A stretch of 54,276 nucleotides of DNA from a virus (taxonomy: Duplodnaviria > Caudoviricetes): positions 1 to 54,276 of the IMG/VR virus record IMGVR_UViG_3300048575_000513; one strand, given 5' to 3'. Made by a program: the position numbers and the translations under genes. The stretch's first letter is position 1. Each line of letters opens with the position of its first letter. The notes beneath the pieces are model-generated. The model was not told where the DNA came from. It made no database searches and saw nothing but the letters and a program-made list of their open reading frames with translations. Positions 4,821 to 24,842 of this stretch are shown piece after piece.

Positions 4821-6845
4821 ATGAAACAAATATCGTTAAAAAAACTGAAGCTGACAAGATTCAAAGGAGCGCACGACGTCGTGATTGAATTTGATCCAAA
4901 CGAGACGAATATCTTCGGTGCCAACGGTACCGGCAAGACAACTATTTTCGACGGCTTCCTGTGGCCCCTATTCGATCGCGACAGCTCCGGCCAATCTGAC
5001 TTTAATATTAAAACATTAACCGAAGACGGCAAGCCTGTGGGCCGCGTGGGTCATGAGGTTGAACTTACGATCGATGTAGATGGCGCAGAAATCGAAATTA
5101 AGCGCGTCTACGCCGAAAAATGGGTAAAGGCAAAGGGTTTTGAAGAAGCGACCTTTCAGGGCCACGAAAACACGTTCTTTTGGAACGGCGTACCCATGAA
5201 ACAAGTTGATTTTAAAAAGTCCGTGGCGTCCGAGATCTGCGACGAATATATTTTTAAACTCATTACCTCTCCCCTGGCGTTCAACGCGCTTCCCTGGAAG
5301 GAGCGCCGGGAGCTGCTGACCCGGATAGCCGGCAACGTATCCGATACCGACATTGCCGGTGACAACAAAGAATACAGGGACCTGGTTCTGAAGCTGGCCA
5401 AATACAAATCCGAAGAAGATTACCGGTCCATGCTCCGCGCCTCGGTTGAGAAGTCGAAGAAAGAGATTAAGCTGATACCGGCCCGGATTGATGAGGTGAA
5501 GAGGTCCCGGCCTGAGACGCTCGCGTTCGACAGGATCCGGGAATTGATTGCTGAAAAGCAAAAAGAAGTTGCGCGCATTGATGAGCAGATAGAGGATTCA
5601 ACCAAGGCGTATCAGGCCGAACTGGATAAGATCAATGAGCATAACCGGAAGATTGCTGCAGTAAAATCTGAGATAGAAATCATTGAAATCGAGGCCGTCA
5701 GAGCGGCGAAAAAAGCCTGTGAGCAGGACCGCACGGCGTTGAACGCAGCCGTATCTAAACTGGATGCATGCAATCGTGAAATATCATCACTGGGCAGCTC
5801 TTTATGGGTTACAGAATCTGAAATAAGCACCATTGAGGCGAAGACTGCTTCGGTAGATAAAGACATTGTTAATCTTCGTGAAAAATGGACAACCGTTAAC
5901 GCGGAAGAGTGCCACGATTCAACCAATTGCCCAACGTGTAAACAGGCGCTACCAGACGATCAAATAGAAGCCATATTTGACCGGTTCAAGGCCAATAAGG
6001 CCGAGAGGTTAGAATCGATCAATAGCCTCGGCAAAAGGCTTGCTGTCCAGAAAACCGATTTGACAAATCAACTGGTTGGTCTTAACGAACGCGCTGCTGA
6101 TCTCGAAGAGAAGTTAAAGGAAAAGGATGCCGAGTATAAAACTCTTGAATCCAGTGTTGTAAAGGAAAAGCAAGCCTTATCCGATCAGGACGGGCAGCAG
6201 TGGCAGGATGTTTACAATGAAAAGCTGCAATCTGATCTTGAATATATCGCTAATCAACAGATATTATCTGAGCTGCAAGCCTCCGCGCCGGAACGGCCAG
6301 TTGTTGACAACGGTTTGTTGAAGGAAAAGAAGATCTCTATTGCTGCGGAAATCGACAGCCTCAAATCCGACCTACAGGTTGAAAATTTAATTAAACAAAC
6401 GGATGCGCGTATTGCAGAACTGGAAGCCCAGGAAAAGGTATTGGCCAAAGAGATTGCCGACGTAGATAAGCAGATCTTCACCCTTGAAGAGTTTACAAAA
6501 CTAAAAGTTGATGAGATTGAACGCAGGGTGCGCGATCAATTCGACGGCGTTTCATTCCGCATGTTCCGCGAGCAGGTTAACGGGGGGTTAGAGCCGTGCT
6601 GCGACACACTTGTAAATGGTGTTCCGTTCGCTGATGTGAACACAGCGGGAAAGATTAATGCAGGGTTGTCGATCATAAACACTCTGTCGAAACATTTTGG
6701 AGTATCGGCGCCTGTGTTTTTGGATAACAGGGAATCTGTATCGGATGTGATTGAAACGGATGCGCAGCTAATCAACCTTATTTTTTCCCCGGCGCATAAA
6801 GAGTTAACGGTTGAGGTTGCTGAAAAAGAATTGGTAAACGCTTAA
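4821..6845 (+). CDS. SbcC/Rad50-like coiled-coil ATPase
   Basis: Walker A GANGTGKTT, long coiled coil, CPTC zinc hook, Walker B VFLDNRES. Confidence 0.85.
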   Translation: MKQISLKKLKLTRFKGAHDVVIEFDPNETNIFGANGTGKTTIFDGFLWPLFDRDSSGQSDFNIKTLTEDGKPVGRVGHEVELTIDVDGAEIEIKRVYAEKWVKAKGFEEATFQGHENTFFWNGVPMKQVDFKKSVASEICDEYIFKLITSPLAFNALPWKERRELLTRIAGNVSDTDIAGDNKEYRDLVLKLAKYKSEEDYRSMLRASVEKSKKEIKLIPARIDEVKRSRPETLAFDRIRELIAEKQKEVARIDEQIEDSTKAYQAELDKINEHNRKIAAVKSEIEIIEIEAVRAAKKACEQDRTALNAAVSKLDACNREISSLGSSLWVTESEISTIEAKTASVDKDIVNLREKWTTVNAEECHDSTNCPTCKQALPDDQIEAIFDRFKANKAERLESINSLGKRLAVQKTDLTNQLVGLNERAADLEEKLKEKDAEYKTLESSVVKEKQALSDQDGQQWQDVYNEKLQSDLEYIANQQILSELQASAPERPVVDNGLLKEKKISIAAEIDSLKSDLQVENLIKQTDARIAELEAQEKVLAKEIADVDKQIFTLEEFTKLKVDEIERRVRDQFDGVSFRMFREQVNGGLEPCCDTLVNGVPFADVNTAGKINAGLSIINTLSKHFGVSAPVFLDNRESVSDVIETDAQLINLIFSPAHKELTVEVAEKELVNA

Positions 6846-7299: not shown

Positions 7300-8073
7300 A
7301 TGAGTACAGAAAACAAACAAGTGGCAGCAGCCCTGCCGGCAACCAGGCCCAAAGGCGAGGTAACGTACCAGGTCGCAGGCCAGGACGTAAGACTTAACTA
7401 TCAGATCGTAAGAGATTTCCTTACTAAAGGCAACGGGCAGGTTTCCGACCAGGACCTAACCCAGTTCATATCCATATGTAAGTACAATCAGCTTAACCCG
7501 TTCCTTAACGAAGCATATTTGGTTAAGTTCGGTCAACAGCCTGCTTCAATGATTGTATCGAAGGAAGCATTTTTTAAACGCGCAGATGCAAACGAAGATT
7601 ACGAAGGTATCAGGGCGGGCATTATTATACAAAGGGGTAAAGATGTGATTGAAGTTGAGGGTTCGTTTAAAACCAAAGACGATATACTGTTAGGCGGCTG
7701 GGCAGAGGTTCACCGTAAGGGCAGAAAGTTCCCATTCATTTCAAAAGTTGCGCTTAACGAGTACGATAAACAGCAATCGCTATGGAAAGAAAAGCCGTCC
7801 ACAATGATTTCAAAAATTGCTAAGGTGCAGGCCTTGCGTGAAGCATTTCCGGCTCAATTAGGCGCAATGTACACACAGGAAGAAGCTGATAGAACCGAAG
7901 ATGTTGCAGCAGAAGTTGTTTCTTCTGAAATCAAAGCATATGCCAATAAAAAAGTGTTTGACTTTGAAGAGTCTGAGCAGGTTAAGGAAGAACCGAAAGC
8001 ACAACCTAAGCAACCTGAACCGGTTGAGGCTAACGCAAACGGCGAATTGTTTAACGAAGGTCCAGGGTTTTAA
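7300..8073 (+). CDS. recT: RecT/Bet single-strand annealing protein
   Basis: LNPFLNEAYLVKF and WKEKPSTMISKIAKVQALREAFP motifs. Confidence 0.9.
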   Translation: MSTENKQVAAALPATRPKGEVTYQVAGQDVRLNYQIVRDFLTKGNGQVSDQDLTQFISICKYNQLNPFLNEAYLVKFGQQPASMIVSKEAFFKRADANEDYEGIRAGIIIQRGKDVIEVEGSFKTKDDILLGGWAEVHRKGRKFPFISKVALNEYDKQQSLWKEKPSTMISKIAKVQALREAFPAQLGAMYTQEEADRTEDVAAEVVSSEIKAYANKKVFDFEESEQVKEEPKAQPKQPEPVEANANGELFNEGPGF

Positions 8074-8075
8074 AA

Positions 8076-8723
8076 TTGATAGTTATGCGAGTATTGGTTA
8101 ACACAGGTGATGTCTTCGGAAACTTCACGGTATTAAAAGAACTCGAACAGAAGGGAAACCTCAGAATGTTCTTGTTTAGGTGTGTGTGTGGTAAAGAGGT
8201 TGTTCGTCCTCTTGGTCAAGTAAAAGGTTTGTTTTTAAAAAGTTGCGGATGTCTTAGGCCGGTACCGATACACTCTTTAACACACGGTATGACCGGTACA
8301 AGGATATATAGAATTTGGCAAGGCATTAAAAACAGGTGTTATAATAAAAATAGGAAAGCTTATAAGAACTACGGTGGCAGAGGCATATCGGTTTGTAATG
8401 AATGGATGCATTTTGAGCCATTTATGAAATGGTCTTTATTGTCTGGATACACCGATGATTTATCTATAGAAAGAATAGACTTTAATGGAAATTATGAACC
8501 CGACAATTGTAAGTGGATAACATTTTCACAACAAGCATCCAACAAAAGGAATGTAAATATTATTGAAATAGGGGGTATAAGAAAATGTATGGCAGAATGG
8601 TGTCGAATTTATAATGTTCCCATTAGTAGAGTTATAGCCAGAAAAAAATATGGATGGGATTTAGTAAAAGCATTAACTGTTCCTGCTAACCCAAGAAAAA
8701 GAAAACAAAATTATGAAGCTTAA
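8076..8723 (+). CDS. Free-standing HNH-type homing endonuclease
   Basis: RIWQGIKNRCYN...YGGRGISVCNEW...SIERIDFNGNYEPDNCKW; AT-rich relative to flanks. Confidence 0.85.
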   Translation: MIVMRVLVNTGDVFGNFTVLKELEQKGNLRMFLFRCVCGKEVVRPLGQVKGLFLKSCGCLRPVPIHSLTHGMTGTRIYRIWQGIKNRCYNKNRKAYKNYGGRGISVCNEWMHFEPFMKWSLLSGYTDDLSIERIDFNGNYEPDNCKWITFSQQASNKRNVNIIEIGGIRKCMAEWCRIYNVPISRVIARKKYGWDLVKALTVPANPRKRKQNYEA

Positions 8724-9448
8724 GGTTATTGGTTCTGGTAGTTCGGGAAACGGGTATATACTTAAAGATAGTACAGAGCATAGCCTTGTTATTGAAGCTG
8801 GTATGCCGTTTATTGAGTATAAAAAGTTTGTTGACTTTAAAATAAATAATATATGGGCGTGTGTTATATCGCACGCCCATCGAACGAGACCACTCAAAGT
8901 CAACATTAGATTTTTTAAATAACGGGATAAAGGTGTATGCTTTAAAAGAAACGCACGAAGCTATCGGTACAGACAATCACCACAACGCAAGATTTATAGA
9001 GCTTTTTAAGAAATTCAAAACAGGTTCGTTTGAAATAGTTCCATTTGACGTTCAACATGATGTTCCTACAGTTGGATTTTTAATAAAGCACGAAGAAACG
9101 GGGCTTATATGTTTTGCCACCGACACGTATTACATTTCTTATACGTTTCCTAAGTTGAATAATATTATGATTGAAGCCAACTACGCAAAGGATATTATCG
9201 ATCAACGACTTTCAGAACAGATGTTTCTCCGTGACCGTGTTTTGCAATCGCACTTTTCCTTAGATAACTGTAAGGACTTTTTGAAAGCAAACGATTTGAG
9301 CGCAGTTAATCAAATATTGATATTACATCTTAGCGACCGCAACAGCGACGAAAAACGATTTAAAAAAGAAGTCGAGGAACTAACCGGCAAAACGGTACAC
9401 GTTGCCGTAAAAGGTCTGGAAATCGAATTCAATAAAACCCCATTTTGA
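8713..9448 (+). CDS. MBL-fold (YycJ-like) metallo-nuclease split across two frames at 8881-8887 (recoded gene or pseudogene)
   Basis: Frame 1 has GSGSSGNGY...ISHAHR; frame 2 has RDHSKS...HDVP...TDT...IEANY...HLS; removing 4 nt restores HAHRDH and gives about 243 aa. Confidence 0.85.
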
Positions 9449-23370: not shown

Positions 23371-23405
23371 ATTATAATATTTTTCAAGTCCTGCCTTCAC
23401 CGTAG

Positions 23406-23478
23406 TGGGAGCAGATGGGATCGAACCATCATCTAAGGATTTTCAGTCCTCCGCATAGACCAACTTTGCTATGCTCCC
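23406..23478 (-). tRNA. tRNA-Phe(GAA)
   Basis: GGGAGCA/TGCTCCC acceptor stem, GAGGA-CTGAAAA-TCCTT anticodon arm, GGTTCGATCCC T-arm; 73 nt. Confidence 0.9.
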
Positions 23479-24691: not shown

Positions 24692-24842
24692 TGAAGTTCT
24701 GCTGAATAAAACTTAATAAAAATAATCAAAATAGTTTATCTTAACATTTATTTAACTAAATATATTATTTCACAACTATGATCTATAATGTGATTATATA
24801 ATGAACACTTTGTAATTTCACGTGAAATAATATAATTAGTTT

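Follow-up and report, generated by a model that had tools for sequence, protein, structure and literature searches.

The DNA analysed here (hereafter the window) is the 54,276-bp provirus record IMGVR_UViG_3300048575_000513 of IMG/VR, from a virus of the Caudoviricetes (Duplodnaviria), and it carries a recombination module of SbcC-like ATPase, RecT, HNH endonuclease and hydrolase genes. The hydrolase gene, at 8713–9448 on the plus strand, encodes a protein of the metallo-β-lactamase (MBL) fold that belongs to PHROG 392 ('metal-dependent hydrolase'), and its reading frame breaks inside the HxHxDH metal-binding motif, directly downstream of an RNA hairpin. Here, we describe this interruption, compare it with extra bases found at the same codon in related phage genes, and weigh a proposed four-nucleotide ribosomal hop against its alternatives.

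A hydrolase gene interrupted within its metal-binding motif

The first part of the gene (8713–8883, plus strand), delimited by the open reading frame (ORF) list, the phrog_392 match and an alignment of homologues (A1), runs from its ATG to His-Ala-His and one further codon. At the site, CAC (8872–8874), GCC (8875–8877), CAT (8878–8880) and CGA (8881–8883) are followed by a lone A (8884), a second CGA (8885–8887), GAC (8888–8890) and CAC (8891–8893), which confirms every position of the CGA-A-CGA break that a first-pass annotation of the sequence had marked inside the motif. The zero frame from 8713 ends at TAA 8920–8922 after 69 residues; the codon after the first CGA is ACG and the first stop lies 13 codons on, so that, as had also been remarked, no stop follows directly. 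The second part (8888–9448, plus strand; ORF list and A1) opens on GAC, which encodes the Asp of DH; it is read in the +1 frame and supplies the remaining 187 residues up to the stop at 9446–9448. Reading through the gene by a +1 shift gives protein P0001, which matches the phrog_392 profile over residues 1–242 (E 2.9e-70). We refer to the first CGA (8881–8883) as the proposed take-off codon and to the second, the same codon (8885–8887), as the proposed landing codon; judged from the sequence and A1, the single base between them would go unread in a shift totalling 4 nt.

In A1, which joins the window protein to its 19 best homologues (50–61% identity), exactly one residue separates the second His from DH in all 19 homologues. 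A single codon lies between HxH and DH in intact relatives, so the window gene holds four extra bases: 7 nt stand where 3 are expected, no single frame spells HxHxDH with one spacer residue, and only skipping 4 nt brings the motif back. Read simply in +1, the gene yields HAHRRDH, one residue too many, as the first-pass annotation had argued. The window protein keeps all invariant residues of the family (45 invariant columns in A1, the window included).

Among the 61 sense codons, none is used less often in the window than CGA (58 of 14,521 codons in 42 ORFs). We also tabulated the residue at x, the position between the second His and DH, in 199 intact relatives and found Gly in 90, Lys in 31, Gln in 26, Met in 13, Leu in 13, Asn in 12, Ala in 6, Ser in 5 and Thr, Glu and Phe in one each; Arg occurred in none. 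As Arg is never found at x in intact relatives, the CGA pair is not the leftover of an ancestral Arg codon duplicated by chance, and the choice of the two CGA codons looks connected with recoding.

Homologues of the window hydrolase number 1831 at E up to 1e-3. The 'nuclease' identity given by the first-pass annotation proved to be an assumption, since the family is one of MBL-fold hydrolases; both 'nuclease' and 'anti-Pycsar' are annotations for this protein, not results. We found no membership in the Apyc1 family: homologue P0003 scored 12.6 bits against PF23023 (E 0.096), below the cut-off of 50, P0001 was unmatched, and the match to the Apyc1 structure 7u2s in the PDB (E 1.6e-4) covers residues 2–65 only.

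Folding confirmed the 11-bp hairpin that had been noticed just before the take-off codon, on its 5' side (8853–8880, plus strand; ΔG −19.7 kcal/mol), with arms at 8853–8863 and 8870–8880 and a 6-nt loop at 8864–8869. Its 3' arm encodes Ser-His-Ala-His, and its last base directly precedes the take-off codon. One pair, T8862/G8871, is G·U, which leaves the stem fully paired in sense-strand RNA only. The 101-nt fold around the hairpin has a z-score of −5.6, with none of 200 shuffles folding as well, and the hairpin ranks sixth in length among the 69 inverted repeats of the window (arms of at least 9 nt, at most 80 nt apart) and fifth in strength among 233 unique sequence contexts of the family, the nearest intact relative reaching −9.4 kcal/mol. 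An outer helix encloses both hairpin and hop site: its 5' arm (8820–8838, plus strand) pairs with a 3' arm (8896–8917, plus strand) that begins 8 nt past the landing codon and has a 3-nt bulge at 8906–8908, and 10 nt of it are perfectly paired (8829–8838/8896–8905). The 114-nt segment 8812–8925 folds at −35.3 kcal/mol (z = −6.65) as sense and −31.0 kcal/mol (z = −5.18) as antisense RNA. Outer helices are not enriched in recoded alleles of the family (Mann–Whitney U test, p 0.95; the window ranks 14th of 233), so this one is window-specific or incidental. Rfam gave 0 matches at E up to 1 in 8500–9200.

We checked the four extra bases in Logan contigs of three wastewater runs, which cover small parts of the region and may derive from DNA or RNA, not in the raw reads where the first-pass annotation would have sought them. 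A 151-nt contig of run X2 (depth about 4) spans 8821–8970 with 0 differences and 0 gaps and no indel listed, and four other pieces of the region among the wastewater contigs are likewise identical to the window. Run X2 is not the source assembly, because only 0.07 of the sampled words are present in it. The window is one record from a metagenome, yet an artefact of assembly or sequencing is hardly credible, given that a contig from a separate, later data set is identical across the site; the insert also lies outside any homopolymer.

Extra bases at one codon across the hydrolase family

From A1 we derived one degenerate DNA pattern (His-x-His, n bases, Asp-His, x, Lys, 8 codons, Gly, 3 codons, Tyr) and scanned viral contigs with it, varying only n (2, 3, 4, 6, 7 or 9 nt) at one spacing of the three downstream anchor residues; matches were classed as family with a hidden Markov model (HMM) built from A1. 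Intact spacing (n = 3) gave at least 108 stretches; 79 of the 80 loci kept were family, and 80 further intact loci were added from a similarity search. As frequencies the class sizes are biased, by this lower bound, by the three downstream residues that the pattern fixes and by the added loci. One extra base (n = 4, the +1 class) gave 41 stretches, 32 of them family by the HMM, and two more loci are family-like by eye (L220, cut by a contig end, and L221, with a weak N part). Six extra bases (n = 9, the +6 class) gave 52 stretches with 49 family members, and four (n = 7, the +4 class) gave 4 stretches with one (L097). There were no family members among the 6 stretches with n = 2 (−1) or in the single stretch with n = 6 (+3), and non-family, chance matches numbered 1 to 9 per scan. 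A variable-gap version of the pattern found 9 matches in 401 Bacteroidota genomes, of which 3 were family, all intact.

The 32 alleles of the +1 class read CTT T GAC (16), GGG T GAC (12), TTT T GAC (3) or CTT T GAT (1). In every one the zero frame consists of x and then TGA, and a +1 move yields the canonical HxHxDH. The codons CTT, TTT and GGG, all able to re-pair at +1, stand before T-GAY in 32 of 32 alleles as against 7 of 199 intact x codons (Fisher p 9e-33), and the same contrast among unique contexts is 18/18 versus 7/180 (p 3e-20). These alleles lie among loci L206–L246, all on viral contigs (for example, L239 4317–4380).

The +6 class comprises 50 alleles, the GenBank record of phage phi18:3 included, and 47 of them have the form codon-stop-codon, with the two codons synonymous in 45. 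For Gly the inserts are GGT TAA GGA (18), GGA TAA GGA (5), GGT TGA GGC (4), GGT TAA GGC (3) and GGT TAA GGT (1); for Leu, CTC TGA CTG (5), CTC TAA CTT (1) and CTT TAA CTT (1); and for Gln, CAG TGA CAA (4) and CAA TGA CAG (3). The exceptions to synonymy are CAA TAG CTT and GGT TAA AGT (L272 and L262), perhaps decaying alleles or a sign of how loose landing can be. In the remaining three alleles the stop comes straight after the second His: CAT TAG CAC GGA, CAT TGA GAC GGC and CAC TGA GAT GGT. Two of these, L275 and L278, continue with an Asp codon (GAC or GAT), not His, so landing would need tRNA(His) on GAY with two of three bases matched; their 5' hairpins are very long and reach −17.5 and −26.5 kcal/mol. 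The third, L302 (191–215, CAT GAG CAT TAG CAC GGA GAT CAT), allows two readings: GDH preceded by His-stop-His, or, after an additional His-Glu, an uninterrupted H-x-H-G-D-H with TAG as its first x; at L302 alone, the phage could alternatively have TAG reassigned. For the class as a whole a reassigned code is argued against, because all three stop codons occur in it. The commonest insert before Asp, GGT TAA GGA GAY (L268, L284, L256 and others), contains the Shine–Dalgarno-like AAGGAG, which overlaps the stop and the landing codon and might help landing through anti-Shine–Dalgarno pairing.

The +4 class consists of the window and L097, in which TTA GAT T GAC gives Asp, then TGA, with GAC as landing codon. 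A zero-frame stop stands at the site in 83 of the 84 recoded alleles, the window being the exception. One rule, re-pairing of the P-site tRNA, would explain all three classes, while stop read-through cannot explain +1 and +4.

Cultured phages share the arrangement. A tblastn search with a +1-class protein against 50,697 phage records returned 221 records, among them the Cellulophaga phages phi18:3 (KC821620.1; L253 1636–1690) and phi46:3 (KC821622.1; L255), which carry an in-frame CAA TGA CAG in HxHxDH and whose hydrolase gene is annotated as two coding sequences (gp020 and gp019 in phi18:3). Their sister phages phi13:2 and phi19:3 have a single intact coding sequence: where phi18:3 reads ACA CAC GGC CAC CAA TGA CAG GAC CAT, phi13:2 reads ACT CAC GGG CAC CAA GAT CAT. 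In a 12-bp stem that finishes with the second His codon, phi18:3 shows a single mismatch and phi13:2 three imperfect positions (ΔG −20.8 versus −13.9); the two phages are set apart there by a double change (U·G to G-C) and a repair (T-T to T-A). Because cultured phages with a cultivable host are included, the claim about the family is directly testable.

In a FastTree tree of the 233 unique contexts, 53 of which are recoded, the recoded state is scattered and not confined to one clade, and we count at least 24 changes between intact and recoded (10 for +1, 14 for +6). We then estimated the ratio of nonsynonymous to synonymous substitution (dN/dS) in the part after the break. Of 18 pairs computed, 6 were saturated in dS, 1 was identical downstream and 3 compared a recoded with an intact allele; the other 8, between alleles sharing an insert, show purifying selection, with dN/dS of 0.07–0.25 at dS of 0.33–2.4. 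The individual ratios are 0.11 for L268/L257 (dS 2.4), 0.07 for L238/L241 (dS 0.86), 0.14 for L271/L294, 0.17 for L267/L288, 0.11 for L256/L276, 0.10 for L217/L230, 0.25 for L217/L237 and 0.07 for L261/L295, and the three recoded–intact pairs give 0.20–0.24. Such constraint on the downstream part is not expected of pseudogenes. It is also implausible that the second part is initiated on its own, as it opens with Asp-His and lacks a start codon.

We took as hairpin strength the minimum free energy of the 40-nt stretch whose 3' end is the second His codon. The median is −5.5 kcal/mol in intact alleles, 14% of which reach −10 or stronger, and −8.7 kcal/mol in both the +1 and the +6 class, where 39% and 45% do so; recoded alleles as a whole have stronger 5' hairpins than intact ones (median −8.7 versus −5.5, Mann–Whitney p 0.003) and hold 15 of the 20 strongest.

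Taken from sequence comparison, the x codon between HxH and DH is very probably a recoding hot spot of this phage MBL-fold hydrolase family. The hot spot appears to be undescribed in the searchable literature: outside subscription journals and supplementary tables we found no paper linking the hydrolase family to recoding, and the GeneTack cluster tables of PMC3711429 might list it.

A proposed hop in the window gene and its alternatives

In the relatives, a stop stands directly after x, and an intact HxHxDH can be reached only if the peptidyl-tRNA sitting there leaves its codon and pairs again 1, 4 or 6 nt downstream. From the observed family pattern, and from the selection observed on recoded relatives, we infer that the window gene may be decoded by a +4 hop of peptidyl-tRNA(Arg), a reading that we would accept about as readily as reject. 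The same event would take place here without a stop: the tRNA would un-pair from CGA 8881–8883, the mRNA would slide by 4 nt, the tRNA would re-pair on CGA 8885–8887, and decoding would resume at GAC 8888 to give a product of about 243 residues containing VISHAHRDHSK. Ribosomes that did not hop would run into the 69-residue dead end.

Three features could promote such a slide. CGA would be read through a weak I:A wobble, stalling the ribosome in place of the missing stop; in yeast, as part of one report sets out (10.1101/755652), a P-site CGA read by tRNA(ICG) through I:A displaces the first A-site base and slows the next codon. The 11 bases of the hairpin's 3' arm would lie in the E site and exit channel, where refolding on exit could pull the mRNA forward, much like the 'driver' role proposed, in a portion of the T4 gene 60 work (10.1101/2024.12.09.627546), for the 5' stem-loop of that gene. 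Lastly, the landing codon is a perfect match. The likely purpose is low, fail-safe expression, because only an exact hop would rebuild the active site.

A simple origin for the four bases would be a 2-nt deletion in an older CGA-stop-CGA site, which would leave the product unchanged because landing depends on pairing and not on frame. We considered and rejected three other origins. Template switching on the hairpin is contradicted by flanks that are not complementary (by eye), a perfect tandem duplication by TCGA and ACGA differing at one base, and an ancestral Asn codon (the closest homologues read HxHNDH) with two separate 2-nt insertions, though conceivable, is less parsimonious and does not restore the frame.

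The first-pass annotation had proposed a programmed hop with matched codons and a 5' hairpin, and the recurrent family inserts, their matched or slippery codons, the hairpins and the purifying selection lend strong, though indirect, support to that proposal. The window itself fits the family rule in place, in matched codons and in its hairpin, and breaks it in the stop. Several points weigh against the hop. Alone among the 84 recoded alleles, that of the window has no stop next to its take-off codon, and the ACG that follows instead is the least used Thr codon (16%) yet not a rare one (10.4 per 1000 codons in the window). The +6 class would frequently land on a synonymous codon of different sequence (GGT to GGA in 18 of 50), which makes the re-pairing rules looser than a strict match, and read-through adding two residues could, as far as the sequences go, also account for that class. 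The hairpin signal is also uneven. A sister-clade test that reused some intact tips favours the link, with a stronger hairpin in 17 of 25 recoded-only clades than in the intact tip nearest to each (median difference −5.6 kcal/mol; Wilcoxon, one-sided, p 0.013), but the stricter independent-pairs test at the −10 threshold was not significant (14 pairs, median p 0.45; 4.4 in the same direction, 1.6 opposite, 8.0 without difference). As several recoded lineages (L256, L276, L300, L208, L218, L265, L268 and L261) have no hairpin at all, the hairpin is a frequent companion and not a requirement. The I:A stalling data come from yeast and may not hold for the host. Finally, the allele lies in a provirus, where a recent inactivating indel would be ordinary, its nearest homologue is 61% identical, and its nearest tips in the tree are all intact.

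These points lead to the most serious competitor of the hop, namely that the window allele is dead, by a random 4-nt insertion or by a 2-nt deletion of the stop (CGA TRA CGA to CGA A CGA), so that too few ribosomes hop to matter and the hairpin and matched codons are relics or coincidence. The missing stop and the provirus setting would both be explained, an intact downstream frame is also expected after a recent mutation, and the +4 class is rare (one of four scan matches, plus the window). Nor does any close relative show that the allele persists. Scans with the single protein returned only 2 loci in viral contigs (51–55% identity), 3 in genome contigs and 7 in metagenome contigs (both at most 55%), the best protein match of all is 61% identical, and blastn against cultured phages gave nothing useful. 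A search for short N-terminal fragments (3 candidates) found only the window ORF and P0123, a 65-residue protein on a 2794-bp Logan contig that is the closest such fragment (63% identity); its HIHSDH is intact and it ends seven residues later, through a break elsewhere or at the contig end.

A dead allele would nonetheless demand a good deal of chance. An indel striking at random would need to hit the single codon at which the family is recoded, create an identical in-frame codon pair there, do so with the rarest codon of the phage where Arg is absent from 199 intact genes, and land next to a hairpin ranked fifth of 233. The same allele also occurs unchanged in the separate wastewater data set, and even if the codons and hairpin were relics of an older site, hopping would yield the correct protein, since it is pairing and not frame that decides where the tRNA lands. 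We therefore regard a dead allele as a distinct possibility, though one that falls short of being probable.

A plain +1 shift, or four-base decoding of CGAA, would yield HAHRRDH and require the extra residue to be tolerated. Such a shift restores the frame, and the largest frameshifting class of relatives does move by +1. Yet one spacer residue is present in all 199 intact relatives and in the predicted products of the other recoded alleles, the single stretch with 6 nt at the site is not a family member, and tRNA(Arg) cannot re-pair on GAA. Neither a suppressor tRNA nor one with an enlarged, four-base anticodon loop is encoded in the window, whose sole tRNA gene is tRNA-Phe (GAA) at 23405–23478 on the minus strand. 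Pfam, moreover, recognises the homologues but no longer P0001, the product of exactly this reading. We consider the plain +1 shift very improbable.

The neighbouring genes, all on the plus strand, bear on a further alternative. The SbcC-like ATPase gene (4821–6845; phrog_77, E 2.3e-71) is syntenic in nearly all family loci and is followed by the gene for the RecT-family annealing protein (7300–8073; PF03837, E 2.7e-40) and by the free-standing HNH endonuclease gene that the first-pass annotation had correctly seen just upstream (8076–8723; phrog_374, E 3.6e-61), which overlaps the hydrolase start by 11 nt. Because recT and the hydrolase gene abut in relatives, the HNH gene is an insertion between them, and the insert in the hydrolase gene could accordingly be part of a homing cassette that breaks the target of the neighbouring endonuclease, hopping merely repairing the damage; the T4 gene 60 insert, as stated in part of one report (10.1101/2022.08.31.505936), breaks the target of MobA. 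Across the family, a homologue of this HNH immediately precedes the hydrolase gene in 7 of 176 intact, 2 of 25 +1 and 0 of 41 +6 loci, and follows it in none. An HNH gene sits between the annealing-protein and hydrolase genes in 9 other distant loci (L008, L017, L044, L049, L065, L186, L201, L229 and L231; 36–42% identical to that of the window where compared), 7 of them with an intact motif; such recurrence at one spot suggests a homing endonuclease whose insertion site is conserved. On these counts recoding and this HNH family are not linked, HNH homologues adjoin uninterrupted motifs as well, and a homing cassette is improbable on a search confined to this HNH family. The comparison of homologous phage genes that the first-pass annotation proposed thus turned up recurrent short inserts at the exact position, with matched or slippery codons and often a strong 5' hairpin, and its expectation of linkage to HNH genes failed.

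Elsewhere in the window, the longest inverted repeat (24754–24773/24822–24841; 20 nt, 95% complementary, 48 nt apart) is AT-rich and lies beside a palindrome at 24815–24828; it may be a regulatory or origin region.

Returning to the hop, we tentatively combine these readings into one, as a composite whose chances we put just short of even: HxHxDH would be a natural recoding hot spot with at least 24 gains or losses and +1, +4 and +6 forms, the +6 alleles would be the first natural stop hops, and the window would hold a stop-independent +4 hop, driven by CGA and the hairpin and serving as a fail-safe throttle. One codon of a single gene family offers natural sites by the dozen, independent of one another and of three kinds, which makes the rules of hopping readable from natural variation: the codons used for take-off and landing, the need for a stop and the contribution of the 5' hairpin. 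Such genes are at present annotated as two fragments or as pseudogenes, as with gp020/gp019 of phi18:3, and gene callers and pseudogene filters will miss recoded hydrolase genes.

Comparison with known recoding systems

To our knowledge, natural programmed bypassing is limited to very few cases, namely T4 gene 60 and its homologues, the yeast mitochondrial 'byps' and one Streptomyces phage terminase, and short hops over a stop have been shown only in artificial constructs. The hop proposed for the window resembles that of T4 gene 60 in that a peptidyl-tRNA moves from a take-off codon to a landing codon of the same sequence and pairs there again, one protein is rebuilt from two frames, and an HNH homing endonuclease gene adjoins. 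The differences are considerable. The window slide would cover 4 nt instead of 50, its take-off codon lacks the following stop that the window's relatives have, and its single-base gap cannot accommodate an A-site stem-loop. Upstream, the peptide is the ordinary conserved sequence of the family, in which we identified no nascent-peptide signal, and the analogy to the mobA cassette fails because HNH is unlinked to the insert across the hydrolase family. The hairpin of the window abuts the take-off codon, while that of gene 60, as given in part of its description (10.1101/2024.12.09.627546), lies 9 nt upstream.

The recoding of the release factor 2 (RF2) gene prfB is a programmed +1 frameshift at CUU UGA C, and the +1 relatives come close to it. 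Seventeen of the 32 carry CTT TGA C or CTT TGA T and the rest TTT TGA C or GGG TGA C, so that a slippery codon and UGA in the A site are found in all 32. The window has neither slippery codon nor UGA, and its CGA cannot re-pair on GAA and would need +4. A phage hydrolase also offers no obvious counterpart to the autoregulatory logic of RF2.

Short tRNA hopping, or 'stop hopping', was reportedly observed at low level by Weiss, Dunn, Atkins and Gesteland in 1987 in synthetic E. coli constructs. There, too, a few bases between matched codons are skipped; in the window an identical codon begins 4 nt downstream, and the relatives with codon-stop-synonymous codon would spend 9 nt on one amino acid. 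What differs is that the hydrolase arrangement is natural, conserved, recurrent and under selection, and that the A site of the window holds a sense codon. A 2016 review states, in one of its passages, that no natural in-frame stop hop is known.

A candidate short bypass after a rare UUA in the terminase gene of Streptomyces phage phiHau3, described in part of PMC10732093 as confirmed by mass spectrometry in E. coli, shares with the window a phage gene, a rare codon followed by a short unread stretch, and strong local RNA structure. The two differ in gene, host and codon, and in the place of the rare codon, which in phiHau3 is the hungry codon in the A site and in the window is itself the proposed take-off and landing codon.

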